This document shows, in pieces, positions 6,980-35,736 of a stretch of 59,134 bases of DNA. The notes below the pieces were generated by a model. The model searched no databases, was not told the origin of the DNA, and was given only the letters and a program-made list of their open reading frames with translations. The stretch comes from an uncultured Verrucomicrobiota bacterium (GTDB lineage: Bacteria; Verrucomicrobiota; Verrucomicrobiia; Limisphaerales; CAIMTB01). Each line of letters starts with the position of its first letter. Positions within the stretch are counted from its first letter, which is position 1. The DNA is taken from the NCBI GenBank assembly GCA_903844265.1, contig CAIMTB010000475.1:1-59134 (forward strand), read 5' to 3'. The position numbers were made by a program, and so were the translations under genes.

Positions 6980-7040
6980 GCCCGTATGCTCCCGGTCATC
7001 CCGGATTTGGCAATCGCTAACCCGTGAGGCATTGTCCCTC

Positions 7041-11223: not shown

Positions 11224-11228
11224 ACCCC

Positions 11229-12494: not shown

Positions 12495-12569
12495 GCTGGA
12501 TTCCTTTGACCCGCCTCAAGCACGTTCGCAGCTTTGTCCGTCAGCCTTCCCCCCTCATACTGAGCACCC

Positions 12570-13688: not shown

Positions 13689-13708
13689 GCCGCGACCCGG
13701 GGTCCGCC

Positions 13709-15217: not shown

Positions 15218-16032
15218 GCAGCCGCCCCCACCCCACCGACCGCGGCGTCCTCGGACACAAGGCCCAGTTCACCCCGGGCCAGCGCCCGACGGACACTCTC
15301 ATCCCCATGCAACAAGCGAAGCGCGATCCATGGCGCGTTGGCCACGCCAGGGACTGCGGCCTCAACCTCTGCCGCGAGCCGCCGTATGGCGTCGCGAAGT
15401 CCTGGAACATCGTAGGTGAGCCGCCTGGGCCGCGCAGCCAGCTGCCCCGTCGCCACACGCTCGATCTCACCCAGGAGCTCCTCCATGCCCTCACGTTGAC
15501 GCGCCGCGGTGGGGATGACCGGAACACCGAGGTCACGCGCCAAACCACGGGTGTCGATTCGCAATCCATGCGCCCGCGCCTCGTCCATGAGGTTCAGGCA
15601 GACGATGGTGCGGTCGGTGATCTGCAAGACCTGCAGCGCAAGATTCAGGTTCCGCTCCAGCGCCGTGGCATCGACGACCACCACCGTGACATCCGGTTTC
15701 CCGAACAGGATGAAATCCCGCGCCACCTCCTCGTCCAGTGAAGACGAGAGCAGCGAGTAGGTGCCCGGAAGATCCACCAGCTTGTACCGACGATCGCGAT
15801 AGGAAAACCCGCCCTCGGCTCGCGCAATGGTCTTCCCAGGCCAGTTCCCCGTGTGCTGACGCAACCCGGTCAGATTGTTGAACACGGTGCTCTTGCCCGT
15901 GTTCGGGTTTCCCGCGAGAGCCACCACATGATCCCAGTTCTCAAGCCCCAGACCGAGCCGCTGAAGGCTCGCCGGGGACCGCCCGGGGACCGCACAGCCG
16001 GAACAGGCACTGGGCGGGCAACCACTGCTCAC
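15214..16032 (-). CDS. feoB: FeoB N-terminal GTPase (G-domain plus helical domain), as a separate ORF
   Basis: VALAGNPNTGKSTVFNNLTG (G1), DLPGTYSL (G3), CLNLMDEA (G4). GTG start overlaps the stop of the upstream gene (GTGA). Confidence 0.85.
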   Translation of the reverse strand: MSSGCPPSACSGCAVPGRSPASLQRLGLGLENWDHVVALAGNPNTGKSTVFNNLTGLRQHTGNWPGKTIARAEGGFSYRDRRYKLVDLPGTYSLLSSSLDEEVARDFILFGKPDVTVVVVDATALERNLNLALQVLQITDRTIVCLNLMDEARAHGLRIDTRGLARDLGVPVIPTAARQREGMEELLGEIERVATGQLAARPRRLTYDVPGLRDAIRRLAAEVEAAVPGVANAPWIALRLLHGDESVRRALARGELGLVSEDAAVGGVGAAA

Positions 16033-16976
16033 GTGCCCTCCTTCAGGTCCACGCCTTCCACCCTCTGCCCAATGAAGACCTGCTCCGCCTGCTCCGTGCG
16101 AAGCGCAATCAACGATCCCCGGACCCGGTAGGCGGACGGACTCGCCAACGGACTCGTGAATCCCAATTCCACCGGGCTTCCAGGAACAAAACCGAGGTCC
16201 AGGAGACGGTTCCGCTCGCGACCCCGGATGGCCGGTGACAACCCACGAACCTCCGCCACCTCCCCAGGCTTCAGATCCGCCAGACGACGCGTCGGCGCCT
16301 CCGCCATCGGGGCCTGCTCGAGACGCGCCACCGACACGTTGCCAGCCAGTGTCCGCGGCAGAACAAAGGCCCTTCCCTCACACCGCACCTTCAAACCCTC
16401 CACCACCGTGCCGTCCACCACCAACCGCATCCCCGGCACCAACCCAGCCTGCGCGATCGCCGCATACACCAGGGCCGGCTCATCCTCGACATGCACGATC
16501 CGCGCCTCGACACCCTCCGGCCAATCCAACAACACACTCCCTTGTGCCGGAGGAAGTTCACCCGATGCCGTCGGAATCGGATCCCCATGAGGATCATAAC
16601 GGGGATCCCCCAACCGCTGCGCCAGGGCATCCACACGCGCCGGCGTCAGGTTGTGCTCGTCAACCTCCGCCCGCTGATGCCATTCGCTCGAGCCCAACCC
16701 CGTCTCCAACGCCAGATAGGTCTCCACAACCCGATGCGCCCGCAACACCTGCACCGCATGTTCCCGCCCCAAAACCGTCAGGTAAAGCGCCCCACCCCCC
16801 CACGCCAGCCAACCGCCGGTAACCAAGCGATCCACCAGCAGACGCGCCGCATCCCGACTCAGGCGCAACGCCCCAGCCACACTGTCCGCACTCGCCGTCA
16901 GGCGATCATACTCACATTGGAACACGTGCTTGAGCGCATCCTCCGCCAACACGCGCTCGTGCCGGGAGGACGTCAC
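16029..16976 (-). CDS. DtxR-family metalloregulator fused to an extra FeoA domain
   Basis: DtxR-like HTH (DSVAGALRLSRDAARLLVDRLVTGGWL), dimerisation/metal region (HRVVETYL...EVDEHNL), SH3-like domain, then a canonical FeoA (LADLKPGEVAEVRGL...LLDLGFVPGSPVEL...VRGSLIALRTEQAEQVFI). Start set at GTG 16976. The tracked start 17108 is a TTG that overlaps the divergent gene. Confidence 0.7.
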   Translation of the reverse strand: MTSSRHERVLAEDALKHVFQCEYDRLTASADSVAGALRLSRDAARLLVDRLVTGGWLAWGGGALYLTVLGREHAVQVLRAHRVVETYLALETGLGSSEWHQRAEVDEHNLTPARVDALAQRLGDPRYDPHGDPIPTASGELPPAQGSVLLDWPEGVEARIVHVEDEPALVYAAIAQAGLVPGMRLVVDGTVVEGLKVRCEGRAFVLPRTLAGNVSVARLEQAPMAEAPTRRLADLKPGEVAEVRGLSPAIRGRERNRLLDLGFVPGSPVELGFTSPLASPSAYRVRGSLIALRTEQAEQVFIGQRVEGVDLKEGT

Positions 16977-17046
16977 CTCACACGTCCCTTCACCACGAGG
17001 CACTGGATGTTGACACTCATACGAAACGTAGCCTCTACTACAGGCG

Positions 17047-17523
17047 ATGTCCCGACCGGTCAAGTCCACGTCCAGAAAGACGTCATCACACCCCGCCCCA
17101 CGCCCCAAGGCCGACGAACAGGCCCTCCACCTCCAGAGAGTCCGACAGCAGAACCGATCCGAGGTCGTCGAAGACTACGTCGAGGCCATCGCCGACCTGA
17201 TCGACCAGACCGGCGAGGCACGCGCCGTCGACGTCGCCCGCAGGATCGGCGTGTCCCACGTCACGGTCATCCAGACGGTCCGGCGACTCCAACGCCAGGG
17301 CCTCGCCACCACCCAGCCCTACCGTTCGATCTTCCTGACTCCCGAGGGCCGACGACTCGCCGAACAATCGCGACATAAACACGACGTGGTCGTCGCGGTC
17401 CTCCGCGCCATCGGGGTCCCCGACAAACACGCCCTCGCCGACGCCGAGGGCATCGAGCACCACGTCGGCATCGAGACCCTCGCCGCCTTCGAACGATTCC
17501 TCGCCGCCATACCCCAGGCCTGA
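17047..17523 (+). CDS. MntR/DtxR-family metal-dependent repressor (no SH3 domain)
   Basis: ATG start. VEDYVEAIADLIDQTGEARAVDVARRIGVSHVTVIQTVRRLQRQGL HTH, then RHKHDVVVAVLRAIGV...AEGIEHHV metal-site helices. Confidence 0.75.
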   Translation: MSRPVKSTSRKTSSHPAPRPKADEQALHLQRVRQQNRSEVVEDYVEAIADLIDQTGEARAVDVARRIGVSHVTVIQTVRRLQRQGLATTQPYRSIFLTPEGRRLAEQSRHKHDVVVAVLRAIGVPDKHALADAEGIEHHVGIETLAAFERFLAAIPQA

Positions 17524-18345: not shown

Positions 18346-18359
18346 TTGACGCCGGTCAA
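18346..18359. promoter_or_regulatory. Crp/Fnr-type box TTGAC-gccg-GTCAA
   Basis: Perfect palindrome, 8/10 to TTGAT-N4-ATCAA. Its centre lies 41.5 nt upstream of ATG 18394 of the DUF2249 gene. Confidence 0.5.
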
Positions 18360-18393
18360 CGCGCCTGCCGCACGGACAGGGCATCGTCTCCCC

Positions 18394-18627
18394 ATGGCGG
18401 CAGACGTAATCCACCTCGACGCCCGAGGCCTCGAACCCCCGCAACCGATGATCCGGATCGTCGAAGCCCTCGAGGCCCTCCCCGCGGGAGCCGAACTCCA
18501 CGCCCGTACCGATCGCAACCCGGTGCATCTCCACCCCTTCCTCGCCGAGCGCGGTTTCCTCGGCAACTCCACCGCCGCCCCTGACCATGAATACGGCTTC
18601 CTCACCATCATCCGTCGCGCGGGCTGA
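18394..18627 (+). CDS. DUF2249-like small protein (TusA/SirA-like fold family)
   Basis: MAADVIHLDARGLEPPQPMIRIVEALEALPAGAELHARTDRNPVHLHPFLAERGF matches my memory of DUF2249 sequences. The tracked start 18346 is a TTG inside the Fnr-type box. Confidence 0.65.
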   Translation: MAADVIHLDARGLEPPQPMIRIVEALEALPAGAELHARTDRNPVHLHPFLAERGFLGNSTAAPDHEYGFLTIIRRAG

Positions 18628-20053
18628 TGCCCCCAGAAGCTCGGGTTCCGCAGGCCCGCGACTCGACGGCCCCGTGCCGGACGTGACCCTGCCGCTCCGT
18701 TTCGTGCTCTTCGGAATCTTCTCGCTGGTCTCCGGCATCGTGATGCTCGTGGCCCGACCCGACCTGCTCGCGGCCTACCACTACAACCAGCATATCGTGG
18801 CCATCACCCACGTGTTCGTCCTCGGCTTCCTCCTCTCGATCGTCAGCGGCGCCATGTACCAACTCGTGCCCATCGTGCTCGAGACCCCGCTCCACAGCGA
18901 ACGACTCGCACGCTGGCACTTCGTGGTCCACGTGGTGAGCGTCACCGGCATGGTCGCCATGTTCTGGGTGTGGAACATGAAACAGCTGGGCCACTTCGGA
19001 TCCGGACTCGCCCTCGGCGCCGCTCTCTTCTCCTGGAACATCATCCGGACTCTCCTCCGCGTCCGCGGCTGGACCGTGGTGTCGTTCGGCATCGCCTCGG
19101 TGCTGTTCTGGCTCGGCTCCGTCGTGATCGCCGGCCTCGCCCTCGCCGCCGCCAAGAGCACTTATGAACTGAACGAGAGCTCCGGCGTGAACCCCCTGCT
19201 CGCTGCAACGCTCAACGGATTGCGTGCCGCACAATCCTTCCTCGCCCGATTCGAGCCGCTCGCCGTCATGCATTCCCACGCCCACCTCGGCGTGCTCGGC
19301 GTGTTCATCCTCGTCACCTGCACCATCGCCTATCGGCTCGTCCCGATGTTCGTCATCGGCGAAATGCAGAACCCCCGACGCGCCTGGACCTCCCTCTGGC
19401 TCATCAATGCAGGCACCGCCGCCACCTTCCTGGCCGTCCTCAACCAAAGCCCACTCAAACCCGTCGCCGGGCTGATCAGCGCCAGCGGCCTTCTCCTCTA
19501 CGGTCTCGAACTCCACGCCATCATCCGCAATCGCCGCCGCAAGACGCTCGATTGGGGGATCCGCATGTTCCTCACTTCGCAAAGCCTCCTCGGCGTCCTG
19601 GTCCTCCTGGGACTCGGCCTCTCCCGGCCCGGCATCCCACTCACCCCATTCTCCGGCCAGCTGGAAACCACCTACGGGTTCCTCGCCATCCTCGGAGTCG
19701 CCGGCCTCGCCATCCTCGGCATGCTCTACAAGATCGTCCCGTTCCTGGTCTGGTTCGCGGCGTACAGCCGCCAAATCGGACGGACCCGAACCCCGGCCCT
19801 GCACGAAATGTATTCCACCCGGCTCCAGATCCTCGGCGGCGGTTCCTGGCTCGCCGGACTCGCGGTGACCATCGCCGGCATCCTCGCCTCGCACCCCGCC
19901 TGCATCCGCGCCGGAACGCTCCTGCTCGCCGCCAGCCTCGTCACCTTCGCCTTCAACATCGCCCGCATCCTCGGCCACCTCGTCCACCCCCAGCTCCAGC
20001 CCATCGCCCCACGAGTGCCCGCCAGCGGCGGCCCCCTCCGGACCACCACATGA
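18587..20053 (+). CDS. 12-TM His-rich membrane protein, NnrS-like / heme-copper-oxidase-subunit-I-like (family unresolved)
   Basis: ATG 18587 overlaps the DUF2249 gene by 41 nt (alternative in-frame GTG at 18674). About 12 hydrophobic helices. His clusters ITHVFVLGF, WHFVVHV and MHSHAHLGVLGVF. Threefold repeated Y-x-[LI]-V-P motif. Confidence 0.65.
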   Translation: MNTASSPSSVARADAPRSSGSAGPRLDGPVPDVTLPLRFVLFGIFSLVSGIVMLVARPDLLAAYHYNQHIVAITHVFVLGFLLSIVSGAMYQLVPIVLETPLHSERLARWHFVVHVVSVTGMVAMFWVWNMKQLGHFGSGLALGAALFSWNIIRTLLRVRGWTVVSFGIASVLFWLGSVVIAGLALAAAKSTYELNESSGVNPLLAATLNGLRAAQSFLARFEPLAVMHSHAHLGVLGVFILVTCTIAYRLVPMFVIGEMQNPRRAWTSLWLINAGTAATFLAVLNQSPLKPVAGLISASGLLLYGLELHAIIRNRRRKTLDWGIRMFLTSQSLLGVLVLLGLGLSRPGIPLTPFSGQLETTYGFLAILGVAGLAILGMLYKIVPFLVWFAAYSRQIGRTRTPALHEMYSTRLQILGGGSWLAGLAVTIAGILASHPACIRAGTLLLAASLVTFAFNIARILGHLVHPQLQPIAPRVPASGGPLRTTT

Positions 20054-20388
20054 ACCCAAACCCCACCGAACCTTCTCCCACCACGCCACCTCCCTCCGAA
20101 TCCGCGCTCTGGGAGGCCCTCCGCTCCGTGATCGACCCGGAAATCGGCCTCAACCTCGTCGACCTTGGCCTCATCTACGACCTTCACATCGAAGGCGGCC
20201 AGGTCCGCGTCACCATGACGGTCACCACTCCCGGCTGCCCAATGGTCCAAAGCCTCACCTTCGGCGTCGAAACCGCCGTGCTCGCCGTCGAGGGCGTGGA
20301 CGGCGTGCTCGTGGACGTCGTCCATGAACCCCCGTGGAACCCCGACATGATCCTTCCCGAAGCCAGGGCCGCCGCCGGTATCCGCTGA
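20050..20388 (+). CDS. DUF59/MIP18 (SufT/PaaD-like) metal-sulfur cluster assembly factor
   Basis: ATG 20050 overlaps the upstream stop (ATGA). LWEALRSVIDPEIGLNLVDLGLIY...VTMTVTTPGCPMV... is the conserved T-x-x-G-C-P motif context. Confidence 0.8.
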   Translation: MNPNPTEPSPTTPPPSESALWEALRSVIDPEIGLNLVDLGLIYDLHIEGGQVRVTMTVTTPGCPMVQSLTFGVETAVLAVEGVDGVLVDVVHEPPWNPDMILPEARAAAGIR

Positions 20389-20526: not shown

Positions 20527-20540
20527 TTGACCTCAATCAA
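20527..20540. promoter_or_regulatory. Crp/Fnr-type box TTGAC-ctca-ATCAA
   Basis: 9/10 to TTGAT-N4-ATCAA. Its centre lies 42.5 nt upstream of ATG 20576 of the first gene of the molybdoenzyme operon. Confidence 0.5.
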
Positions 20541-20575
20541 GGCGCTTCATGAGAAAATGAGCAAACCTCGCCCCC

Positions 20576-22159
20576 ATGAACTCCCCCGGTTGCCGCAGGC
20601 CAGGGCCCTTTCCTTCGCTCCGCGCGATTTCCCTGAGTCTCGCGTACCTGACGGTCGGCAATGGCCTCCTTACCGCCCGAGCCGCGGATAGCAGCCCAGA
20701 CCTCCAGCAAGGCGAAACACTCTATCTCCAACATTGTGCCGCCTGTCATGGAAACCAGGGCGATGGCAACGGACCCGCAACGGTCTGGTTGTTTCCACGG
20801 CCGCGAAACTTCAATGCGGGCCTCTTCAAGATACAGTCCACCCCGGGCGGATCCCTGCCCTCCGATGAAGATCTCTATCGAAGCATCACCCGCGGCCTTC
20901 CGGGCAGCTCGATGCCGTCGTTCACCTACCTCCCCGAGAGCGACCGCCGAGCCGTTGTCCAGTACGTCAAACACCTCACAGCCTTCACCGGCTCCGATGG
21001 CAAACGGATCAACCGCTTCCAGGAAGCCCTGAAATCAGGTCCGGCTCCCAAAACAATCGTCGTCCCTCCGGAACCTCCTTCCACCCTCGAATCCATCGTC
21101 CACGGGAAGGAACTCTATACCCTTCTCGCCTGCAATACCTGCCACGGCCAGAACGGCGCAGGCGACGGCCCGTCCGCTCCAACCCTCAAGGACGCCCTCG
21201 GAATCCCCGTCATCCCGCGCGACTTCGCCATCGGCGCCTTCCGCGGCGGCTCAGACGGCAGCGACCTCTATCTCCGCATCAACACCGGCATCGCCGGCAC
21301 ACCCATGCCGCCGTTCCCGGACGAAACGGTCAAACCCGCAGACCGCTGGGACGTCGTCCATTACATCCAATCCCTCCGCCGCAAAGACGCCGAGGTGAAT
21401 GACATCCTCGCCCCAGAAAACGCACTCATCAAGGCCGCCCACTCCCAGGAACCCCTCCCCCTCGATCCCGTCGCCAATGCATGGGAGCGCGTCGAAGCCG
21501 TCCGCGTCCCACTCAACCCGCTCTGGCCCGAACCGAACTCCTTGCCCGCGGTCGCTGTTCGCGCCCTCCACGACGGCCGCACCCTCGCCATCCTGCTGCA
21601 ATGGCGCGACGACATTGCCAACGGCGCCCCGATCCGGGTCGATGAATTCCAGGACTCCGCAGCCCTGCAATTCTCACTCACCGGCCGCACGCCGTTCCTC
21701 GGCATGGGCGACGCATCCAATCCCGTCAACGTCTGGCACTGGAAGGCCGGCTGGCAGGCCGAAGTGAACGGACAACGTGAGGATGTCTCCACGACGTATC
21801 CCTCACTCCACGTCGATCTCTATCCCGAGGCGTCCAACCTGTTCATCACGGCCGCTTCCGCTGGCAATATCATGTCCCTGGCCCATGCCACACCCGTCGA
21901 GGACGCCAACGCCCGCGGCTTCGGCACCCTCACGTCCCAGGGATCCGACCGCCAGAATGTCCAGGGCCGCGGCGTATGGCGCGATGGCTTCTGGAATGTC
22001 CTCATCTTCCGCGATCTCACCTCCACCGATCCCGACGACGCCAAGTTCATCCCAGGCACCCCCATCCCGGTCGCCTTCGCCATCTGGAACGGGGAGCAAC
22101 GTGACCGCAACGGCCGCAAGGTCATCAGCAACTGGTACCAACTGACCCTCGAAAACTAG
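20576..22159 (+). CDS. Gamma-like subunit: Sec signal + diheme cytochrome c fused to an EB_dh-type heme-b domain (type II DMSO reductase family)
   Basis: Signal-like N-terminus. Two CxxCH (HCAACHGNQGDG, ACNTCHGQNGAGDG). C-terminal half ALHDGRTLAILLQWRD...DSAALQF...LGMGD...VNVWHWKAGW...WRDGFWNVLIFRDL...VAFAIWNGEQRDRNGRKVISNWYQL resembles the EbdC/SerC/NxrC heme-b subunit family. Confidence 0.8.
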   Translation: MNSPGCRRPGPFPSLRAISLSLAYLTVGNGLLTARAADSSPDLQQGETLYLQHCAACHGNQGDGNGPATVWLFPRPRNFNAGLFKIQSTPGGSLPSDEDLYRSITRGLPGSSMPSFTYLPESDRRAVVQYVKHLTAFTGSDGKRINRFQEALKSGPAPKTIVVPPEPPSTLESIVHGKELYTLLACNTCHGQNGAGDGPSAPTLKDALGIPVIPRDFAIGAFRGGSDGSDLYLRINTGIAGTPMPPFPDETVKPADRWDVVHYIQSLRRKDAEVNDILAPENALIKAAHSQEPLPLDPVANAWERVEAVRVPLNPLWPEPNSLPAVAVRALHDGRTLAILLQWRDDIANGAPIRVDEFQDSAALQFSLTGRTPFLGMGDASNPVNVWHWKAGWQAEVNGQREDVSTTYPSLHVDLYPEASNLFITAASAGNIMSLAHATPVEDANARGFGTLTSQGSDRQNVQGRGVWRDGFWNVLIFRDLTSTDPDDAKFIPGTPIPVAFAIWNGEQRDRNGRKVISNWYQLTLEN

Positions 22160-22201
22160 TCCGGCACGGCCCCCCGCCTCATCCAACAACCATTCCCTCC
22201 C

Positions 22202-25200
22202 ATGAGCACCGAGAACCTGAGCCGGCGTAACTTCCTTCAACGCAGCGGACTCGTCGGCGCCGGCATCGCCGCCGCGCAGATGCTCCCGCTCCGCCACCTC
22301 CAAGCCCAGGAGGCCATCCTCAACCCGCTCTCCCATTACCCCAACCGCGACTGGGAGAAGGTCTACAGGAACCAGTACTCGTACGACTCCAGGTTCTCCT
22401 GGGTCTGCGCGCCGAATGATACCCATAACTGCCGTGTCACCGCCCACGTCCGCAACGGCGTGGTGGTCAGGATGGGCGAGCAGTACGACATCGGCACCTA
22501 CAAGGATCTCTACGGCAACCACGCCACATCCAACTGGGGCAATCGCCACTGCGCCAAAGGCTACACCTTCCAGCGCGTCCTCTACGGCCCTTATCGCCTC
22601 AAACATCCCATCATCCGCCGTGGCTGGAAACGATGGGCCGAGGATGGATTCCCCCAGCTCAACAAGGAACTCCGCTCGAAGTATAAGTTCGACTCCCGAG
22701 GCACCGACACCTTCGAACGTCTGTCCTGGGATTCAGCCTTCGAACTGATCGCCAAGGGACTCGCCGCCATCTCACGCCGCTATAGCGGAGAGGATGGCGC
22801 CCGCATTCTCGCCGAACAAGGCTACCCGCCGGAGATGATCCAGGAAATGGGCGGCGCCGGCACACGCACCATCAAATGCCGCGGCGGCATGGGCCTTCTC
22901 GGTGTCCTCGGCAAGTACGGAATGTACCGCCTCTGCAACTCCCTCGCCCTCCTCGACGTCCACGTCCGCGGCGTCAAACCCGCCGACTCCCGCGCCGGCC
23001 GTAACTGGTCCAACTACACATGGCACGGCGACCAGGCCCCGGGCCATCCCTGGGTCCACGGACTCCAGAACTCGGAGTGCGACTTCAACGACCTCCGTTC
23101 CTCCAAGCTCATCATCATGAACGGGAAGAACCTGGTCGAAAACAAGATCACGGATTCCCATTGGTTCATCGAATGCATGGAACGTGGGGCCAAGATCGTG
23201 GTCATCGCCCCGGAGTACGGCGCCCCCTCCACCAAGTGCGACTACTGGATCCCCGTGCGCCCCGCGACCGATGCCGCCCTCTGGCTCGGCGTCACGCGGC
23301 ACATGATCGACAACCGCTGGTACGACGCCGACTTCGTCAAGCAGTTCACCGACTTCCCCCTGCTCGTCCGGGCCGACAACCTCCGCCGCCTCCGCGCCGC
23401 GGAAGTCATCCCCGATTACAAGTCCGCCCTCCCCGCCGACGGACCCAGCCGCACCGTCCAGGGTCTCACCCCCGAACAGCACGCCAGGCTCGGTGACTTC
23501 GTCGTCTGGGACACCAAGTCCTCCTCCCTCAAACCCATCCATCGTGATCTCGTCGGCAAGAAACTCGCCGAATCCGGCATCGACCCGGACCTCGAATACT
23601 CCGGCAAGGTCAAGCTAGTCGACGGCTCCGAAGTAGAGGTCAAGACCGCCTGGGTCCAGTATCAGGTCCACCTTCAGGACTACGACCTGGACACGGTCAG
23701 CGAGATCACCGGTTCGCCCAGGAATCTCATCGAGCAGCTGGCCAAGGATCTCGCGACGATCAAGCCCGCATCCATCCACCAGGGCGAAGGCATCAATCAC
23801 TGGTTCCACGCCACCGAGGCCAACCGCGCCGCCTATCTCCCCATCATGCTCACCGGCAACATCGGCAAGCCCGGCGCCGGCTGCCATGGCTGGGCGGGCA
23901 ATTACAAGGCCGCACTCTTCCAGGGCTCGAAACTCACCGGCCCAGGCTTCAAGGGCTGGGTCGCCGAGGATCCCTTCCATCCCAACCTCGACCCCGCCAC
24001 CCACGGCCGCGACATCGAGCCCCATGCCTATACCAAGGACGAGGAACCCGCCTACTGGAACCACGGCGACATCCCCCTGATCGTCAACACGCCGAAGGAG
24101 GGCCGCAAAGTCTTCACCGGGAAGACGCATATGCCCACGCCAACCAAGGCGATGCTCTTCAGCAACGTCAACCTCATCAACAACGCCAAGTGGGCCTACG
24201 GCGTCATCAAGAACGTCAACCCCCGCGTCGAACTCATCGTCAGCATCGACATCCAGGCCACCGCCTCCGTCGAATACGCCGACTTCGCGCTGCCCGCCAA
24301 CTCCTGGGTCGAGTTCCAGGACATCGAGGTCACCGCCTCCTGCTCCAACCCCTTCCTCCAGATCTGGAAAGGCGGGATCAAACCCCTCTACGACACCAAG
24401 GATGATCTCACCATCCTGGCCGGCCTCGCCGGCGGCCTCGCCCGGGTCACCGGCGACAACCGCTTCAGGGACTACTTCAAGTTCGAGAACGAAGGCCGCC
24501 GCAAGATCTATCTCCAGCGCCTCCTGGATTCCAGCACCACCACCGCCGGCTATCAGGTCGATGACATCCTCGCCGGTAAATACGGCCCCCCCGGCGGTGC
24601 CCTGATGAATTTCAGGACTTACCCGCGAATCCCCTTCTACGAACAGATCACCGACCAGTGGCCGTTCTACACCGACACCGGCCGCCTGCATTCCTACTCC
24701 GACGATCCCACCGCCATCGCCTGCGGCGAGAACTTCATCGTCCATCGCGAAGGTCCCGAGGCCACACCCTACCAGCCGAACATCATCGTAAGCTCCAATC
24801 CATGGGTCAGACCCAATGACTATGGAATCCCCGCCGGGGCCGAGCACTGGGACGAACGCACGATCCGCAACGCCAAACTCGGCTGGCGCGAGGTCAAGGG
24901 CACGAAGAATTTCCTCTGGGAAAAGGGCTATCAGTTCTACTGCCTCACCCCGAAATCACGCCATTCCGTCCACTCGTCGTGGGCCAACGTCGACTGGCAT
25001 CTCATCTGGAACTCCAACTTCGGCGACCCCCACCGCATCGACAAGCGGCTGCCAAACGTCAGCGAACACCAGGTCCACATGAACCCCCAGGCGGCCCGCG
25101 ACATCGGCCTCAAGGACGGCGACTACGTCTATGTGGACGCCAACCCCGCCGATCGTCCCTACCTGGGCGCCACGCCAAGCGATCCCTTCTACAAGGTCAG

Positions 25201-25675
25201 CCGGCTCATGCTCCGACTCACCTACAACGCCGCCTATCCCTATCACGTCATCATGATGAAGCACGGCACCTTCATCGCCACCGAAAAGACGGTCAAGGCC
25301 CAGCAGACACGCCCCGACGGCCTGTCCCTCACCGAGAACGGATACATCGCCAACTTCCGCTTCGGATCCCAGCAGTCGATCAACCGCAACTGGCACATGC
25401 CCATGCACCAGACCGACACCCTGTTCCACAAGACCAAGGTGTTCATGGGATTCCTCTTCGGCGGCGAGGCCGACAACCACGCCGTCAACACCGTCCCCAA
25501 GGAATGCCTCGTGCGCATCACGAAGGCCGAGGACGGCGGACTCGGCGGCCGTGGCCCGTGGAAGCCCGGAACCGACGGCATGTCGCCGGATGCCGAGAAC
25601 GACGAAATGAAACGCTATCTCCAGGGCACCTTCGCCACCGGCAATGGTCAGGGCTCTCCAGCCAGCTTCGAGTAA
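22202..25675 (+). CDS. Molybdopterin oxidoreductase alpha subunit, Tat-exported, NxrA / periplasmic NarG-like (type II DMSO reductase family)
   Basis: Twin-arginine signal SRRNFLQRSGLVGAGIAAA. FS0 motif C69-APN-D73-THN-C77...C117. 1157 aa. MGD-binding-type segments (KLIIMNGKN, IVVIAPEY, LTGNIGKPGAG). Followed by beta and chaperone genes. Confidence 0.9.
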   Translation: MSTENLSRRNFLQRSGLVGAGIAAAQMLPLRHLQAQEAILNPLSHYPNRDWEKVYRNQYSYDSRFSWVCAPNDTHNCRVTAHVRNGVVVRMGEQYDIGTYKDLYGNHATSNWGNRHCAKGYTFQRVLYGPYRLKHPIIRRGWKRWAEDGFPQLNKELRSKYKFDSRGTDTFERLSWDSAFELIAKGLAAISRRYSGEDGARILAEQGYPPEMIQEMGGAGTRTIKCRGGMGLLGVLGKYGMYRLCNSLALLDVHVRGVKPADSRAGRNWSNYTWHGDQAPGHPWVHGLQNSECDFNDLRSSKLIIMNGKNLVENKITDSHWFIECMERGAKIVVIAPEYGAPSTKCDYWIPVRPATDAALWLGVTRHMIDNRWYDADFVKQFTDFPLLVRADNLRRLRAAEVIPDYKSALPADGPSRTVQGLTPEQHARLGDFVVWDTKSSSLKPIHRDLVGKKLAESGIDPDLEYSGKVKLVDGSEVEVKTAWVQYQVHLQDYDLDTVSEITGSPRNLIEQLAKDLATIKPASIHQGEGINHWFHATEANRAAYLPIMLTGNIGKPGAGCHGWAGNYKAALFQGSKLTGPGFKGWVAEDPFHPNLDPATHGRDIEPHAYTKDEEPAYWNHGDIPLIVNTPKEGRKVFTGKTHMPTPTKAMLFSNVNLINNAKWAYGVIKNVNPRVELIVSIDIQATASVEYADFALPANSWVEFQDIEVTASCSNPFLQIWKGGIKPLYDTKDDLTILAGLAGGLARVTGDNRFRDYFKFENEGRRKIYLQRLLDSSTTTAGYQVDDILAGKYGPPGGALMNFRTYPRIPFYEQITDQWPFYTDTGRLHSYSDDPTAIACGENFIVHREGPEATPYQPNIIVSSNPWVRPNDYGIPAGAEHWDERTIRNAKLGWREVKGTKNFLWEKGYQFYCLTPKSRHSVHSSWANVDWHLIWNSNFGDPHRIDKRLPNVSEHQVHMNPQAARDIGLKDGDYVYVDANPADRPYLGATPSDPFYKVSRLMLRLTYNAAYPYHVIMMKHGTFIATEKTVKAQQTRPDGLSLTENGYIANFRFGSQQSINRNWHMPMHQTDTLFHKTKVFMGFLFGGEADNHAVNTVPKECLVRITKAEDGGLGGRGPWKPGTDGMSPDAENDEMKRYLQGTFATGNGQGSPASFE

Positions 25676-25695
25676 CACCCAACATCCTTCATCCC

Positions 25696-26001
25696 ATGCC
25701 CAAGAACGAATCAGACCCCGAGGATCCGCTGGAACTCAACGGCGTCGCCCTGCTCACCAACGAGGACACCCATGGCGAGATGGTGGTCTGTTTTACCGAG
25801 GAATTCATGCGCCTGGGCTACAACGCCTCCAAGATCCTCGCGCTGTTCCGCGATCCCTTCTACATCGGCCCCAGCATGGTCACCCAGGAAAAGGGCGAAG
25901 CCTTCGTCCATGACATCATATCCGAAACATTCAAGGCCTGGAACCGGGAGTGCGACCTTACACCGCCGCAACAACCGCAGGCCGAGGACCTTGTACCCTA
26001 G
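25696..26001 (+). CDS. Hypothetical 101-aa protein inserted between alpha and beta subunit genes
   Basis: ATG 20 nt after the alpha stop. Globular-looking composition (MPKNESDPEDPLELNGVALLTNEDTHGEMVVCFTEEFMRLGYNASKILALFRDPFYIGPSMV...), unlike the Arg/Pro/Gly-rich shadow ORFs. No family recognised. Confidence 0.55.
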   Translation: MPKNESDPEDPLELNGVALLTNEDTHGEMVVCFTEEFMRLGYNASKILALFRDPFYIGPSMVTQEKGEAFVHDIISETFKAWNRECDLTPPQQPQAEDLVP

Positions 26002-26023
26002 ACCCTAGACCCTAGACCCCAGA
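25996..26023. repeat. Heptanucleotide tandem repeat (CCCTAGA)x3 + CCCCAGA
   Basis: Direct reading: ccctaga ccctaga ccctaga ccccaga. It supplies TAG at 25999, 26006 and 26013, one in each reading frame, just before the beta-subunit ATG 26033. Confidence 0.8.
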
Positions 26024-26032
26024 CGAGTTCCT

Positions 26033-27307
26033 ATGAGCAAAGTCTACAACTGGCAGCTTGGTCGTGAGATGGAGTATCCCTACGACGCGGCCTTCCCTGA
26101 CCGTCAGTTTGCCTTCGTGTTCAACCTCAACCGCTGCATCGGATGCCAGAGTTGCACGATGGCCTGCAAGTCCACGTGGACTTTCTCCAAGGGACAGGAG
26201 CACATGTGGTGGAACAACGTCGAGACGAAGCCCTACGGCGGCTATCCCCACCACTGGGACGTCAAACTGCTCTCCCTGCTCGAGCAGTCCAATCCCGGCG
26301 GCCAGACCTGGAACGGCCAACCCGCGGACGTCAAGGCACCCTACGGACAATTCAAGGGCCGCACCGTCTTCGAGGCCGCGACCACCCATATCAGCCCCGA
26401 GGGCGCCCAACGCGCGCTCGGGTATCTCCCGACCGACGAGGAATGGGCGTCCCCCAACCGCTTCGAGGACAATCCCTCCGGCTCGGAGAAGGGACATCGC
26501 GGCCAGTTGGCCTTCAGTTCCGGCGCGAACACCCCCCAGCACAAGACCTGGTTCTTCTATCTGGCACGCCTCTGCAACCACTGCAGCTATCCCGCCTGCC
26601 TCGCAGCCTGCCCCAGGAACGCCATCTACAAGCGACCCGAGGACGGCATCGTGCTCGTCGACCAGGAACGCTGCCGCGGCTACCGCAAGTGCATGGAGGC
26701 CTGCCCCTACAAGAAGACCCTCTATCGCGGCACCACACGCACGAGTGAGAAATGCATCGGCTGCTTCCCTCGGGTCGAAGGGCGCGACCCCGACGGCGGT
26801 GGGATCCCCATGCAGACCCGGTGCATGGCCGCGTGCGTAGGACACATCCGGCTCCAGGGATTGGTCCAGATGAATGCCGACGGAAGCTGGAAGGAGGACC
26901 GGCAGCACCCTCTCTACTATCTCGTCCACGTCGCCAAGGTGGCTCTCCCCCTCTACCCGCAGTTCGGCACCGAGCCCAACGGCTATTACATCCCCCCGAG
27001 ATGGGTCCCGCGCCCCTATCTCCGACAGATGTTCGGACCCGGCGTCGATGCCGCCGTCGAGAGATATTCCAATCCCGACCGCGAACTGCTCGCCGTGCTG
27101 CAGCTCTTCGGGAAGGACGCCAGGATGTGCTTCCGCTACGAAATCAAGGAAGGCCCCAAGGTCTTCGAGAATTCCATCCGCGGCCGCAAGTTCGAGCTCT
27201 TCGATGACACGGTCATCGGCTATGGGGCCGACGGCACCAAGATCATCGAGACCAAGGTCGAGGAACCCCTCCACGTCCGCCCCAGCCAACATGCCAACTC
27301 CATCTGA
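26033..27307 (+). CDS. Fe-S beta subunit, NxrB/NarH-like (type II DMSO reductase family)
   Basis: VYNWQLGREMEYPYD...FAFVFNLNRCIGCQSCTMACK, WWNNVETKPYGGYP, CNHCSYPACLAACP, CRGYRKCMEACPY, EKCIGCFPRVE: four ferredoxin-type Cys groups. Confidence 0.9.
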   Translation: MSKVYNWQLGREMEYPYDAAFPDRQFAFVFNLNRCIGCQSCTMACKSTWTFSKGQEHMWWNNVETKPYGGYPHHWDVKLLSLLEQSNPGGQTWNGQPADVKAPYGQFKGRTVFEAATTHISPEGAQRALGYLPTDEEWASPNRFEDNPSGSEKGHRGQLAFSSGANTPQHKTWFFYLARLCNHCSYPACLAACPRNAIYKRPEDGIVLVDQERCRGYRKCMEACPYKKTLYRGTTRTSEKCIGCFPRVEGRDPDGGGIPMQTRCMAACVGHIRLQGLVQMNADGSWKEDRQHPLYYLVHVAKVALPLYPQFGTEPNGYYIPPRWVPRPYLRQMFGPGVDAAVERYSNPDRELLAVLQLFGKDARMCFRYEIKEGPKVFENSIRGRKFELFDDTVIGYGADGTKIIETKVEEPLHVRPSQHANSI

Positions 27308-28253
27308 ACCCTTCGTGACCGCGGGCGTGGAACCTCTTCCAGACTGCGAGTCGTCCGCCCGATCCGTGTTCGGGAATTATCAGGCCACCGGGAAGGGGAT
27401 CGACTCCGACGAGGCCTCTGCCGACGCAGCCACGTCGACCCCGAGGCGACGGGGCACCGCAGCTCCCCCGACCCTGCAACACGGCATCGACGAGGGCATG
27501 GCCCGGTCATTTCTCTACCGCTATCTCGCCCAGGTTTTTGACTACCCCGACGCCGATGTATGGGGGTGGATCAACGAGCCCGCGACAATCCAGGCCCTGC
27601 GTCTCTCCGCGGCCGCCCTCGCTGGAACCGGCGAAGGCGTCTCCCTGACGACGCGGGTCGAGACTACGTTGTCATCCCTGTGTTCCCACGGGTTTGAGCG
27701 TTTCCAGGACGATCATGTCGCGGCGTTCGGACACGGCGCCCGGGGTTCGTGCCCGATCAACGAGATCGAGTACGGCGACCTGAAGGCGGACCCGCTTTTC
27801 CAACCCCATCGACTCGCCGATCTCGGGGCCTTCTACCGCGCGTTTGGGCTGGTGGTTTCCGATGGCGGCGAGCGGCACGATCATGTGGCTGTCGAACTCG
27901 AGTTCATGGCGGTCCTCACGCTCAGGGAGGCGCACGCGCTCGAGCACCAACTCGGGCATGACGAATGGCTTCTCAACCGCGAAGCCGCGATTTCGTTCAT
28001 GCACGATCACATCGGACGCTGGACCCCTGCCTTCTCCCGGCGTGTGGCCCGCGCCCTCCCCGACTCTCCCATGCGCGCATGCGCCGATCTTCTGCTCGCC
28101 GCGATCGAGAACGACTGCCGACGCCTCGAGCTCACCCCGGGAAGTGAAGACCTTCTTCTCCGACCGGTCGACGCGGTCGCCGAATCGATGTGTTCCGGCT
28201 GCGGCCTCGACCAGACGCCACCCGGCGGCGACACGGTGACCAACGATCGCTAG
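27291..28253 (+). CDS. TorD/NarJ-family (delta) maturation chaperone
   Basis: SFLYRYLAQVFDYPD..., HDHVAVELEFMAVL..., FMHDHIGRWTPAF: typical TorD-family helices. ATG 27291 overlaps the beta stop by 17 nt. A shorter start at ATG 27498 (MARSFLYRY) is equally possible. Confidence 0.7.
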   Translation: MPTPSEPFVTAGVEPLPDCESSARSVFGNYQATGKGIDSDEASADAATSTPRRRGTAAPPTLQHGIDEGMARSFLYRYLAQVFDYPDADVWGWINEPATIQALRLSAAALAGTGEGVSLTTRVETTLSSLCSHGFERFQDDHVAAFGHGARGSCPINEIEYGDLKADPLFQPHRLADLGAFYRAFGLVVSDGGERHDHVAVELEFMAVLTLREAHALEHQLGHDEWLLNREAAISFMHDHIGRWTPAFSRRVARALPDSPMRACADLLLAAIENDCRRLELTPGSEDLLLRPVDAVAESMCSGCGLDQTPPGGDTVTNDR

Positions 28254-28273
28254 ACGGATCAACAAACCCGCTC

Positions 28274-29197
28274 ATGCAACTCCTCCTGGACGACGATCTG
28301 GTCGAGGGCGCGACATTCCTTTGCGCCACCCGTCGGCACGACATCCCCTCGACGTCCATCCGCCGATTCCATCAATCGCGCGAAAAAGCCTATTCCTTCC
28401 TCGACCCAGACGAGCGGCAGGAGGCGTTCGCGCGGGTGCATCAGGAATTCTTCCAGGAATGGGGCCTTCGTGCCGCACTCGATTCCGGACTCGCACGCTT
28501 CCAGAACCTCCAGCAGCACCTGATGGCGGCAGCCTTCCGAAAGGCCCGGGTCCGGACGGAGGAGGGCGCGGACCTCCACGTGAACCCCGACGCCCGGCGT
28601 CGTGCAATTGTCGCGCTTCTGCCCGAGCGCATGGCCTCCACGGACCGTCTGGACCCGTTTCTCAACCACGAACTCCAGCACGTCTCCGACATGGTGGACC
28701 CCGCCTTCGAGTATGATGCAGAAGGCGTCTCCGCGGGCGCCTCGCCATCCCAACAGCGACTCGTCCGCGAGCGCTATCGCCTGATCTGGGACGTCACGAT
28801 CGACGGCCGGCTCGGCCGGTGCGGATTCGCCACGGTCGCGACGGAAGCCGAGCGCAGCGCGGAATTTGAGCGGGCATTCGGGTTCCTGGCAGACCGCAGC
28901 GATCGATTCGTGCAGCTCTGGGAGGGTGATCACCCCACACACACGGAAGTGCTGTCGCTGGCACGCGACCCGCGGGGGTTCAGCCAGACACGACAGATCG
29001 AGCCCGGGGCGCCCTGTCCGCTCTGCGGCTTTGCCACCTTCCAGTGGATCAGGGCAGCAGACATCTCCGCCGTGGTGTTGGGACGGATTCGAAAGGATTT
29101 CAAGGAATGGCACGAGGACGAGGCTCTGTGCGCGCGATGCGCCGAAATGTATGAAGCGACCGCCATGGAAGGGCTGCCCACCACCATTGAGCTCTGA
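28274..29197 (+). CDS. Hypothetical protein with HExxH motif and C-terminal CxxC...CxxC zinc-ribbon
   Basis: ATG 28274 (MQLLLDDD...) lies 20 nt after the chaperone stop. FLNHELQHVSDM, and CPLCGFATFQW...(~40 aa)...CARCAEMYE. No family recognised. Confidence 0.55.
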   Translation: MQLLLDDDLVEGATFLCATRRHDIPSTSIRRFHQSREKAYSFLDPDERQEAFARVHQEFFQEWGLRAALDSGLARFQNLQQHLMAAAFRKARVRTEEGADLHVNPDARRRAIVALLPERMASTDRLDPFLNHELQHVSDMVDPAFEYDAEGVSAGASPSQQRLVRERYRLIWDVTIDGRLGRCGFATVATEAERSAEFERAFGFLADRSDRFVQLWEGDHPTHTEVLSLARDPRGFSQTRQIEPGAPCPLCGFATFQWIRAADISAVVLGRIRKDFKEWHEDEALCARCAEMYEATAMEGLPTTIEL

Positions 29198-29306
29198 CGC
29201 TCCCGAACCCGCGCCCCAGCACTTCGACTTCGCGCCAACTATCGTGCCGGTTCCCGGACGGCCCATCGGGTTGCATTCGATCTCCTGCGAGCCAGAGTGG
29301 GAGCAC

Positions 29307-30026
29307 ATGACCGGATCGCACTCGGAACTCAAGGAAGCGGCGCTGATGAACGCCCTGCGTTCCTCGCATGTCTTCGTAGGTCTGGGCGGTGAAGACCTTC
29401 GCCGGCTCGCGGGGCTCGTCCTCCCGCAAAACCTCGAGACCGACAATTATCTCTTCCACGAAGGCGATCCCTCCCGCGGCTTCTACATCGTGCGCAGCGG
29501 CGCGATCTGTGTCCATCGGGTCAACGCCGCCGGGAAGGAACAGGTGATCCACGTCTTCCGGGCCGGCGAGTCATTCGCCGAGGCGGCCCTCGCCATGGAA
29601 AACGGCTATCCCGCGCACGCACGCGCGCTCGAACCTTCCCAGGTGCTGCTCGTCCGTCGCGACGGCGTCATCGACATGCTCCGGTCCCAACCGGACCTCG
29701 CGCTTCGCATGATCGCCTCGATGGCGGTCCATCTCCACACCCTGGTCGGCCAGATCGAGGATCTCACGCTCAAGGATGTCGAGACGCGCCTCGCGAACTG
29801 GCTCCTGAAGCAATGTCCCAGCGCGTCCTGTATCCAGCCGTTCACCGTGCAGCTCAAAGGCACCAAGCGCGCCCTCGCCGCCGAGCTCGGCACCGTCAGT
29901 GAGACGTTCTCACGAACGCTCGCCAAGCTCCGCGAGCAGGGATTCATCGAGGTCGATGGCCCCGCCATCACCCTCCTCAACCCACAGAAACTCCGGGTCA
30001 TGCTCCGACGGAACCTCGGCGAGTGA
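29307..30026 (+). CDS. Crp/Fnr-family transcriptional regulator without N-terminal Cys cluster (Dnr/NnrR-like class)
   Basis: cNMP-binding-like beta-roll (LFHEGDPSRGFYIVRSGAICV), C-terminal HTH RALAAELGTVSETFSRTLAKLREQG with the E--SR recognition motif. Alternative start at ATG 29346. Confidence 0.85.
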   Translation: MTGSHSELKEAALMNALRSSHVFVGLGGEDLRRLAGLVLPQNLETDNYLFHEGDPSRGFYIVRSGAICVHRVNAAGKEQVIHVFRAGESFAEAALAMENGYPAHARALEPSQVLLVRRDGVIDMLRSQPDLALRMIASMAVHLHTLVGQIEDLTLKDVETRLANWLLKQCPSASCIQPFTVQLKGTKRALAAELGTVSETFSRTLAKLREQGFIEVDGPAITLLNPQKLRVMLRRNLGE

Positions 30027-34074: not shown

Positions 34075-34309
34075 GTCAGACCCTCACCCTGCGGCCCGCT
34101 TCAGCGGAACAGTGGCAACTGTGCCCGACTGACCGACGGAACGTTGTCGAGGACGGCTCCAGCGCCGCGCCGGCGGGTCCGTGCCCCGGATCACCCCATG
34201 GAAAGGTGAGACCCGGCATCCTGCCGACAATCCTGCAAGGGACGCCCTCTCCAGAGCGTGGATCCGGACTGCCCAACAATTCCGTCGCACACCCCCAGTC
34301 ACCCCGCCG

Positions 34310-35719
34310 ATGAACGCAGCGTCGCCCCGCGCCATTCCGTCCGTGGACAAACTTCTCTCGGCCCTCGATGTCACGGCCATCCCCCGCAGCGTGGTCACCC
34401 GCAGCGTCCGTGAGCATCTCGACGAACTCCGCCGCACGACGCCTCTCGAGATTCCTCCCTTCGACGTCCTGGTCGCCCAATTGCGCACGAAACTCACCGC
34501 GCTCCAGCGCTCGCGGCTCCAACCCGTCATCAACGCCACCGGCATCCTCGCCCACACCAACCTCGGCCGCTCGCCCCTCAGCCCCTCCGCCGCCACCGCG
34601 GTCTACGACGCTGCCCGCGGTTATTCCAACCTCGAATTCGACCTCGAATCCGGCGAACGCGGACGCCGCGGCGCCTACGTCGAGTCAGCCCTCGCCCTGC
34701 TCTGCGAATCCGAGGACGCCACCCTCGTCAACAACGGCGCCGCCGCCCTCGCCCTCATCCTCCGCAACCTCGTCCGCCCCGCGCGCAACGAGGTCGTGAT
34801 CTCCCGTGGTGAACTGGTCCAGATCGGCGGCGGCTTCCGCATCCCCGACATCCTGGAGACGTCCGGCGCCCGGCTTCGCGAAATCGGCACGACCAATCGA
34901 ACGACCCTCGACGACTACCGCGGCGCCATCGGCGAGCGCACGGCCCTGCTGCTCAAGGTCCATCGAAGCAACTTCTTCATGGAAGGCTTTGTCGAATCAC
35001 CCGCCCACGCCGGACTCGCCGCGCTCGCGCGCGAACACTCCCTCCCGTTCGTCGAAGACCTCGGCAGCGGAGCCCTCGTCGACATCGCCACCCTCGCGCC
35101 GGTCAACCACGAACCCCAACCCCAGGAATCGATCCGCGCCGGCGCCGACGTCGTCTGCTTCAGCGCCGACAAGCTCCTCGGCGGTCCGCAGGCCGGAGTC
35201 ATCATCGGCAGGACATCCCTCATCCAGGGCTTCCGCCGCGACCCGCTCTTCCGGGCACTCCGCTGCGACAAACTCATCATCGCCGCGCTCCAGGCCACCG
35301 TGGAAGCCTACCTGCACTCCCTCGCAAGCAGGGATTCCAAGCCACCGGGGGACATCCCCGTCCTCGCCATGATGCAAATCCCGGTGTCTGAACTCGAGCA
35401 GCGCGCGGACCGGATGCTCACGGCCTTGGCCAGCCTCCCGTCGAAATGCGAAATCGGGACCGGCCGGTCCCAGGTGGGTGGCGGCGTCTGCCCACGCTCG
35501 TTCATCCCATCCGTCACCGTTCGAATCCGCCCCAACTCCATCTCCCTCGACGACTTTGCCGCCCGTCTCCGCCGCGGCGCGCCCCCCGTCATCGGCTTCA
35601 TCTCCGAGGACAGTTTCCAGCTCGACCTCCGAAGCGTGCCTCCTTCCCAGGATGCCGAACTGATCAGCGCCATCCACGCCACCTTGATGAAGGAACCACC
35701 CGAAGGCCGTGACCCGTGA
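34310..35719 (+). CDS. selA: L-seryl-tRNA(Sec) selenium transferase
   Basis: ATG 34310 (MNAASPRAIPSVDKLL). VINATGILAHTNLGRSPLS, and FSADKLLGGPQAGVIIG with the PLP lysine. Confidence 0.9.
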   Translation: MNAASPRAIPSVDKLLSALDVTAIPRSVVTRSVREHLDELRRTTPLEIPPFDVLVAQLRTKLTALQRSRLQPVINATGILAHTNLGRSPLSPSAATAVYDAARGYSNLEFDLESGERGRRGAYVESALALLCESEDATLVNNGAAALALILRNLVRPARNEVVISRGELVQIGGGFRIPDILETSGARLREIGTTNRTTLDDYRGAIGERTALLLKVHRSNFFMEGFVESPAHAGLAALAREHSLPFVEDLGSGALVDIATLAPVNHEPQPQESIRAGADVVCFSADKLLGGPQAGVIIGRTSLIQGFRRDPLFRALRCDKLIIAALQATVEAYLHSLASRDSKPPGDIPVLAMMQIPVSELEQRADRMLTALASLPSKCEIGTGRSQVGGGVCPRSFIPSVTVRIRPNSISLDDFAARLRRGAPPVIGFISEDSFQLDLRSVPPSQDAELISAIHATLMKEPPEGRDP

Positions 35720-35736
35720 CCAGCAACCCGTAGTCA

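Follow-up and report, generated by a model that had tools for sequence, protein, structure and literature searches.

What does an enzyme built like a nitrite oxidoreductase (NXR) do in a bacterium of non-nitrifier type? The question is raised by a 59 kb contig stretch of an uncultured Verrucomicrobiota bacterium (CAIMTB010000475.1; the window, meaning the whole stretch analysed), which carries at 20576-30026 a seven-gene operon for a molybdoenzyme with alpha, beta and gamma subunits. The operon is predicted to encode a soluble, periplasm-facing nitrate/nitrite enzyme of the NXR family, and its core genes recur as a cassette in many phyla. We propose, with a probability of roughly 60%, that its main physiological role is the dissimilatory reduction of nitrate to nitrite under low-oxygen or nitrogen-oxide (N-oxide) conditions, with electrons supplied through cytochrome c.

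A first-pass annotation, made from the letters of the window, had described seven co-directional and tightly packed genes. Checks of the open reading frames (ORFs) and their translations found all seven on the + strand, close-set and at the positions it gave, and the same gene set was reproduced by independent gene calls on identical metagenome contigs. The features are as follows.

20527..20540, no strand assigned: FNR/Crp-type palindromic box TTGACCTCAATCAA, 36 nucleotides (nt) before the gamma start codon
20576..22159, + strand: gamma subunit, 527 amino acids (aa), with a pair of cytochrome c domains and one EB_dh domain in Pfam
22202..25675, + strand: alpha subunit, 1157 aa, Molybdopterin domain and twin-arginine (Tat) signal, a protein of NxrA type with the Mo-bis-MGD cofactor (molybdenum held by two molybdopterin guanine dinucleotides)
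25696..26001, + strand: small ORF, 101 aa, acidic, without a signal peptide, conserved core at about residues 1-85
26033..27307, + strand: beta subunit, 424 aa, Fer4_11 domain, 16 Cys, NxrB type
27291 or 27366 to 28253, + strand: TorD/NarJ-type assembly chaperone, 320 or 295 aa, PF02613 (Nitrate_red_del) and TIGR03482
28274..29197, + strand: protein with HExxH and double CxxC, 307 aa, predicted cytoplasmic, recognised by motif only
29307..30026, + strand: Crp/Fnr-family regulator, 239 aa, cNMP_binding and HTH_Crp_2 domains in Pfam

As far as the HExxH gene, neighbouring genes overlap or stand 20-42 nt apart, and the regulator gene starts after a gap of 109 nt. The chaperone matches PF02613 at 1.6e-14 and TIGR03482 at 84 bits; its start is ambiguous (27291, 27366 or 27498), and gene callers give 320 or 295 aa. 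In a promoter and terminator scan of 17.4-30.3 kb, nothing exceeded the shuffled background.

All three subunits are placed in the NXR family because of their scores against the Protein Data Bank (PDB), their identity levels and their ligand residues. Alpha aligned end to end with NxrA of Kuenenia stuttgartiensis (7B04_B) at 1696 bits, compared with 191 bits for PcrA, 137 for EbdA and 105-111 for NarG. Its identity to the Kuenenia protein (PDB 7B04), 60.9% over 957 residues, falls at the level of accepted NXRs (about 55-62%): NxrA of accepted nitrifiers is ~60% identical to that of Kuenenia, and nitrifier sequences are 54-62% identical among themselves (PMC3578206 for the latter). Published levels against NXR are ~40% for Nitrotoga and Hydrogenobaculum and ~20% for Nar and Ebd. 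The iron-sulfur (Fe-S) cluster FS0 had been read as ligated by three cysteines and one aspartate (C69-x3-D73-x3-C77...C117), in agreement with the crystal structure of Kuenenia NXR-A (KsNXR-A), where FS0 is held by C67/D71/C75/C115, N70 is the substrate Asn and D275 is the Mo-ligand Asp (PMC8387239). Indeed, all ligand residues named for KsNXR are present here: C69, N72, D73, C77, C117 and D277 of alpha align with C67, N70, D71, C75, C115 and D275, and they are invariant in all aligned cassette homologues. The SRRNFLQ motif of alpha, likewise noted before, passes the Tat model TIGR01409 (18.0 against a cutoff of 16.7), and its arginine pair (R8R9) is kept in 78-79 of 82 aligned sequences.

The other two subunits point the same way. 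Beta matches 7B04_A over its full length at 576 bits (PcrB 204, NarH 177) and contains four Cys groups, for four Fe-S clusters; having no signal peptide, it would be co-exported with alpha. In gamma, two CxxCH motifs and an EB_dh domain had been recognised, and both are confirmed by Pfam and by the motif positions (residues 54 and 186). A Kuenenia diheme cytochrome (6H5L_B) is matched by residues 44-269 (2e-49) and Kuenenia NXR-C (7B04_C) by residues 298-526 (6e-39). The heme-b ligands of NxrC, Met155 and Lys305, have their aligned counterparts in M377 and K515. By this reading of its sequence, gamma combines an export signal, a diheme cytochrome c and an NxrC/EB_dh heme-b domain in one polypeptide. 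The operon thereby presents the NxrB-type beta and the EB_dh-type heme-b gamma with Met/Lys ligation that characterise an NXR.

Membership in related families can be set aside. NarGHI is ruled out by the score of the NarG model TIGR01580 on alpha (123.7 against a cutoff of 1084), the Tat signal, the Cys at the first FS0 position and the lack of a membrane protein in the operon. A search with type II dimethyl sulfoxide (DMSO) reductase models gave the generic TIGR03477, TIGR03478, TIGR03479 and TIGR03482 as the best NCBIfam models for the operon, with all three subunits below the subfamily cutoffs (alpha 340 against 984.75, beta 257 against 480.7, gamma 132 against 169.85), and these scores together with the low PDB scores rule out Pcr, Clr, Ser, Ddh and Ebd. 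The enzyme had been assigned to the periplasmic NXR family of Nitrospira, Nitrospina and anammox bacteria rather than to any of these groups, and that assignment holds.

The composition of the operon, which had been called unusual, turned out to be a rule. A genome scan in which each species was represented by a single genome gave at least 593 stretches that encode an alpha relative, the nearest 80 of which were fetched and used for all counts of loci given here; in the protein database, alpha relatives form more than 2700 clusters. When all window proteins were compared with these loci by tblastn, the order gamma-alpha-small ORF-beta-chaperone-HExxH, with the fused gamma, was kept in essentially every locus that was long enough. 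What had looked unusual is therefore how a very large cassette, spread across phyla, is normally laid out; an alternative NxrC with c-heme and heme b, a TorD-like chaperone and a 'putative zinc finger' protein had, moreover, already been published from NXR clusters of nitrifiers and anammox bacteria (PMC3578206). The 80 loci span over ten phyla. The nearest relatives (74-87% identity) are Verrucomicrobiota and include the isolate Limisphaera sp. VF-2 (L012), whose cassette is complete, with alpha 80% and beta 79% identical. At 66-76% identity follow Planctomycetota, Omnitrophota, Acidobacteriota, Binatia, Methylomirabilia, Latescibacterota, Sumerlaeota and others. In an unrooted neighbour-joining tree of 81 cassette alphas and Kuenenia NxrA (rebuilt from the PDB alignment), which contained no nitrifier references, the Verrucomicrobiota including the window form one group (bootstrap 44/50). 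The cassette alphas are at least 65.8% identical pairwise, and Kuenenia NxrA is 59-65% identical to them, at most 65.3%. Three loci labelled Bifidobacteriaceae (L009), Akkermansia muciniphila (L014) and Bifidobacterium sp. (L016) carry the verrucomicrobial type of cassette (alpha 80-81%) and fall inside the Verrucomicrobiota group; the labels probably reflect mis-binning or mislabelling.

The enzyme is anchor-less as encoded, as had been suggested. A hydrophobicity scan found no membrane-helix segment above threshold in any of the seven products. For the flanks, all flanking ORFs of the 80 loci were clustered and the cluster representatives were searched with Pfam; within ~10 kb, neither a quinol dehydrogenase nor a bc-type complex nor a NarI-like protein was recurrent. 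An anchor encoded nearby is rejected in view of the helix-free operon, this flank clustering and the rarity of the one COX1-like neighbour discussed below.

Two genes of the cassette, the 101-aa ORF and the HExxH gene, encode proteins that have no Pfam or NCBIfam match, even at E = 5. A homologue of the 101-aa protein stands between alpha and beta in 73 of the 80 loci, with an invariant N-terminus (MPK-E--DP-E). Its AlphaFold2 (AF2) model has a four-helix core (predicted local distance difference test, pLDDT, >90) and found no fold match in the PDB by Foldseek (best E = 3.8); the all-helical model makes a NapD-like role unlikely. The HExxH gene lies downstream of the chaperone gene in 58 loci. 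Its product has 457 homologues, and those with a source name are all called 'hypothetical'. A profile search of 1.84 billion representatives put the family at ~1000 (1010) clusters at 50% identity, all of them stand-alone proteins of ~300 aa, with no informative fusion. H132, E133, H136, D139 and M140 (HExxHxxDM) are invariant, as are C248, C251, C286 and C289; the best Foldseek hits of its AF2 model (pLDDT 90), a putative zinc metallopeptidase (E = 0.066, template-modelling score 0.25) and an HExxH oxygenase domain, are both too weak to be followed. Since both proteins lack a signal peptide, the simplest guess is a role in cytoplasmic maturation. Two strictly co-located proteins without a fold match are candidate assembly factors for NXR enzymes, a family that to our knowledge has never been produced heterologously. 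In Kuenenia, two small unassigned ORFs between nxrA and nxrB are transcribed and were not detected in the proteome. The genes given as conserved with NXR by Lucker et al. (PMC3578206) include one for a 'putative zinc finger' protein.

The operon had also been placed behind a Crp/Fnr box. Within the window, TTGACCTCAATCAA is the sole match with at most one mismatch to TTGAT-N4-ATCAA, where 0.44 would be expected by chance. In 8 related loci from Verrucomicrobiota, the form TTGAC-N4-ATCAA likewise stands 29-51 nt ahead of the gamma start, against a chance expectation of ~0.05 in those upstream stretches. We accept the box as real because it is unique in the window and conserved upstream of gamma beyond chance. 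The regulator carries the E-x-x-S-R recognition helix, as ETFSR. Its assignment to the Crp/Fnr family stands, but from its sequence it is not FNR proper: an oxygen-sensing FNR is ruled out because neither the N-terminal Cys cluster nor the CxxC of FNR was found in the regulator, and with the NCBIfam Fnr model it reaches 60.7, where the cutoff is 228 (the best NCBIfam match is FtrB, below its own cutoff). A Crp-family gene adjoins the cassette in 5 related loci by tblastn and in 7 by flank clustering. Twelve loci, mostly non-verrucomicrobial (L015, L028, L041, L042, L045-L047, L050, L062 and L066-L068; e.g. L068:7508-8071), have an Rrf2-family regulator, possibly of the NsrR type, immediately upstream of the cassette; in the window and a few other loci a Crp/Fnr gene takes its place.

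Which way does the enzyme run? Nitrate reduction is favoured because the cassette is accompanied by Crp/Fnr- and Rrf2-type regulators, which are typical of anaerobic N-oxide regulons. It is favoured also because the genes that accompany NXR as a conserved accessory set in nitrifiers and anammox bacteria (bd-like oxidase, cupredoxins and extra cytochromes; PMC3578206) are absent, neither the oxidase nor the cupredoxins occurring in the window or among the recurrent neighbours. Finally, it is favoured because the cassette-bearing Limisphaera VF-2 respires nitrate: according to PMC13608581, Limisphaera strains VF2 and 4302-co respire nitrate, and 'distant homologs of NarGHI' are present only in these two and not in the strictly aerobic type species, L. 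ngatamarikiensis. We infer that the genes called NarGHI-like there are this cassette. The same paper gives these bacteria menaquinone-7 (MK-7), alternative complex III in place of bc1, and NrfAH. Direction had been left open in the first-pass annotation; this is borne out only in part, in that a cultured strain with the cassette respires nitrate. By analogy with Kuenenia NXR, the enzyme is probably reversible; KsNXR-ABC in vitro reduces nitrate at 1.5 umol/min/mg and oxidises nitrite at 61 nmol/min/mg, a difference of ~25x (PMC8387239).

We propose that the operon, switched on by the adjacent Crp/Fnr-type activator at the upstream box, would give rise to a soluble periplasmic alpha-beta-gamma heterotrimer. 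From what is known of the family, alpha would be loaded with Mo-bis-MGD and FS0 in the cytoplasm with the help of the TorD-like chaperone, and the 101-aa and HExxH/zinc-ribbon proteins may join in this assembly. Alpha would then be exported by Tat with beta riding along, and gamma would be exported separately by Sec and receive two c-hemes and one b-heme. Electrons would pass from menaquinol to a quinol:cytochrome c oxidoreductase encoded elsewhere, presumably alternative complex III in Limisphaera, and from there to the fused diheme cytochrome c domain, heme b (Met/Lys), the four Fe-S clusters of beta, FS0 (3Cys+Asp) and finally Mo. Energy would be conserved upstream of the enzyme and not by the enzyme itself. 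This route is modelled on soluble type II DMSO-reductase enzymes such as selenate reductase, which are fed by a quinol:cytochrome c reductase via cytochrome c4 (cited in PMC3578206).

Several points weigh against assigning nitrate reduction to the enzyme. Periplasmic nitrate reduction is not itself electrogenic, and the electron donor complex is not encoded in the window. High-potential c-hemes and a Met/Lys heme b would suit either electron direction. Most related loci have no adjoining Crp/Fnr gene, and the regulator lacks an oxygen-sensing cluster. The role of the enzyme in this clade is read from genes, and the Limisphaera link passes through a homologue at 80% identity and an assumed match to the NarGHI-like genes of PMC13608581. 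In addition, Suarez et al. favoured nitrite oxidation for genes of the same kind in Planctomycetota metagenome-assembled genomes (MAGs; PMC10732223).

The alternative that survives best is the reverse reaction, which we consider possible though unlikely. Nitrite would be oxidised in the periplasm, its electrons leaving by way of the diheme cytochrome c fused to gamma and ending at an oxidase of cbb3 or caa3 type. A heterotroph would thereby gain extra energy under microaerobic conditions, or a means of nitrite detoxification. High-affinity oxidases, too, are under the control of FNR-type activators, and alpha is as close to Kuenenia NxrA as is the NxrA of true nitrite oxidisers. Variants of NxrC bearing c-hemes have been proposed as an exit to terminal oxidases (Lucker et al., PMC3578206), the Planctomycetota hypothesis just mentioned concerns equivalent genes, and Limisphaera has both cbb3 and caa3 oxidases (PMC13608581). 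However, according to the same paper the Limisphaera strains that bear the cassette are nitrate-respiring organoheterotrophs, and they showed no autotrophic growth on H2/CO2, with or without sulfur, nitrate or nitrite. The missing accessory genes and the nearby Crp/Fnr and Rrf2 regulators likewise speak for nitrate reduction.

A bolder form of the nitrite-oxidising idea would make the cassette a self-contained, horizontally spread module for microoxic nitrite oxidation in hundreds of heterotrophic lineages, with the 101-aa and HExxH proteins as new, NXR-specific maturation factors. We regard this as doubtful. If it were true, Verrucomicrobiota, Planctomycetota, Omnitrophota, Acidobacteriota and others would be unrecognised nitrate producers.

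It is very unlikely that the complex is not truly anchor-less and has its missing membrane partner directly upstream. The genes at 18346-20388 (+) encode three products: one that is DUF2249/TusA-like, a polytopic protein of 488 aa and a Fe-S assembly protein with DUF59. The polytopic protein (18587-20053, +), which the first-pass annotation did not mention, has ~10-12 hydrophobic segments and a weak match to COX1, heme-copper-oxidase subunit I (PF00115, 39 bits), including an HxH-type motif (HSHAH) with no obvious HH CuB pair. Its gene lies on the same strand as the operon and ends ~520 nt before gamma, and the DUF2249-COX1-like-DUF59 trio is also near the cassette in L016 and L024. However, these are the only two of the 80 loci with the trio or its COX1-like gene near the cassette (three loci if a weak COX1-like match in L021 is counted), and in L024 the COX1-like gene is on the opposite strand. 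A separate transcription unit is suggested because the FNR box lies between the COX1-like cluster and gamma. The search of the PDB found no sequence relative of the COX1-like protein, and nothing indicates that it binds quinol or cytochrome c.

Least credible of all is another substrate, whether chlorate, perchlorate, selenate or an organic or sulfur compound: a Tat-exported alpha, Fe-S beta, soluble EB_dh gamma and TorD-like chaperone are common to Pcr, Clr, Ser, Ddh and Ebd, and the best models are the generic type II ones, but their scores lie far under the cutoffs, PcrA and EbdA score ~10x lower than NxrA against alpha, the substrate-coordinating Asn (Ile in EbdA) and the Mo-ligand Asp are invariant, and VF2 does not respire selenate or arsenate (PMC13608581).

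Around the cassette, the recurrent neighbours in the 80 loci, genes of Moco biosynthesis among them, were MoaA (16 loci), MobA (13), the Rrf2 regulator (12), MOSC (9), CMD (8), MoeA (8), MoaC-MogA (7), MoaE (7), Crp/Fnr (7) and an Alginate_exp-type outer-membrane barrel (7). The gene of this beta-barrel adjoins the cassette in loci from three phyla (L016, L024, L039, L062, L066, L068 and L075; e.g. L062:18700-20220), and the barrel could be an outer-membrane anion channel for nitrate and nitrite.

The remainder of the window consists of housekeeping genes with hallmarks of the Planctomycetes-Verrucomicrobia-Chlamydiae (PVC) group. A PVC host of non-nitrifier type had been proposed on the basis of pseudopilins, a giant CotH protein and ppdK, and it is borne out by the DUF1559 and N-methyl pseudopilins together with the other two. 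The giant is a 2139-aa protein (51518-57937) that combines a CotH kinase-like domain with four domains of the lamin-tail type; on either side of it stand pseudopilin-like genes (N-methyl/DUF1559), which are typical of PVC bacteria. A run of iron and Fe-S genes at 11169-17523 encodes a class-V aminotransferase (cysteine desulfurase-like), a Mrp/NBP35-type P-loop protein with DUF59, FeoB, FeoA and an iron-dependent repressor. A homologue of DsbD is encoded at 6321-9224. The selenocysteine incorporation machinery, SelA and SelB, is encoded at 34133-37728, ~4 kb downstream of the operon. Every 2-kb bin of the window has a GC skew below zero (-0.07 to -0.24), with a G+C content of 61-67%. Since most genes of the window are on the + strand, its coding strand is strongly enriched in C, probably through codon usage (C-ending codons), possibly combined with replication strand bias.

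These results matter because NXR-type genes widely serve as markers of nitrite oxidation in metagenomes. The same family is found here in ordinary heterotrophs, with nitrate respiration in at least one cultured relative, and a match to nxrA does not equal nitrification. Limisphaera sibirica VF2 offers a tractable organism in which the direction of the enzyme could be settled.

Among known systems, the closest is Kuenenia stuttgartiensis NXR-ABC (7B04; Chicano et al. 2021, PMC8387239), which is likewise soluble, with a Tat-exported alpha, a 3Cys+Asp FS0, the substrate Asn and the Mo-ligand Asp. Its beta matches end to end, and its NxrC heme-b domain has the same Met/Lys ligands as the C-terminal half of gamma. 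Both systems have small unassigned ORFs between the alpha and beta genes (two in Kuenenia, one here). However, the Kuenenia order is A-(two small ORFs)-B-C-T rather than gamma-alpha-small ORF-beta-chaperone-HExxH, and gamma of the window has an N-terminal diheme cytochrome c fusion that Kuenenia NXR-C does not have. In contrast to Kuenenia, the window is without genes for NXR-T, a multiheme protein, cupredoxins or a bd-like oxidase, and its host is not an anammox bacterium. The NXRs of Nitrospina as well as Nitrospira (Lucker et al. 2010, 2013; PMC3578206) are likewise periplasmic, with beta hitchhiking on alpha and a heme-b gamma that is soluble or weakly anchored, as here. Their genomes also hold gamma-like proteins with 1-3 c-heme sites and a heme-b domain, a TorD-like chaperone and the 'putative zinc finger' protein. 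However, the nitrifier operon is nxrABC or nxrAB, and the c-heme variants of gamma are encoded elsewhere and are candidates only, whereas in the window the fused gamma is the sole gamma and stands first in the operon. SerABC and ClrABC share the common principle of an anchor-less type II enzyme whose heme-b gamma exchanges electrons with c-type cytochromes (cited in PMC3578206), but they belong to a different clade (PcrA 191 against NxrA 1696 bits), their FS0 is His-type, and their cytochrome c is separate and not fused.

NxrA/NarG-like genes of the same kind have been reported from non-nitrifiers, namely Planctomycetota MAGs (Suarez et al. 2023, PMC10732223, the study from which L049 and L061 come), the NC10 bacterium CSP1-5 (PMC6094997) and Limisphaera (PMC13608581; L012 is VF-2). 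Molybdopterin oxidoreductase and nitrate reductase are the only annotations that these genes carry, and the literature leaves their direction unsettled; the retrieved parts of these sources do not describe the six-gene cassette, the fused gamma or the two accessory families. Published work already covers NXR-like genes in non-nitrifiers and the unsettled question of their direction, as well as the Asp ligand of FS0 and NxrC variants that bear c-heme. What is added here is a strict cassette of six genes together with its breadth, a fused gamma that serves as sole gamma, two unassigned accessory families that are always co-located with it, an FNR-type box conserved in the verrucomicrobial branch and a link to a nitrate-respiring isolate.

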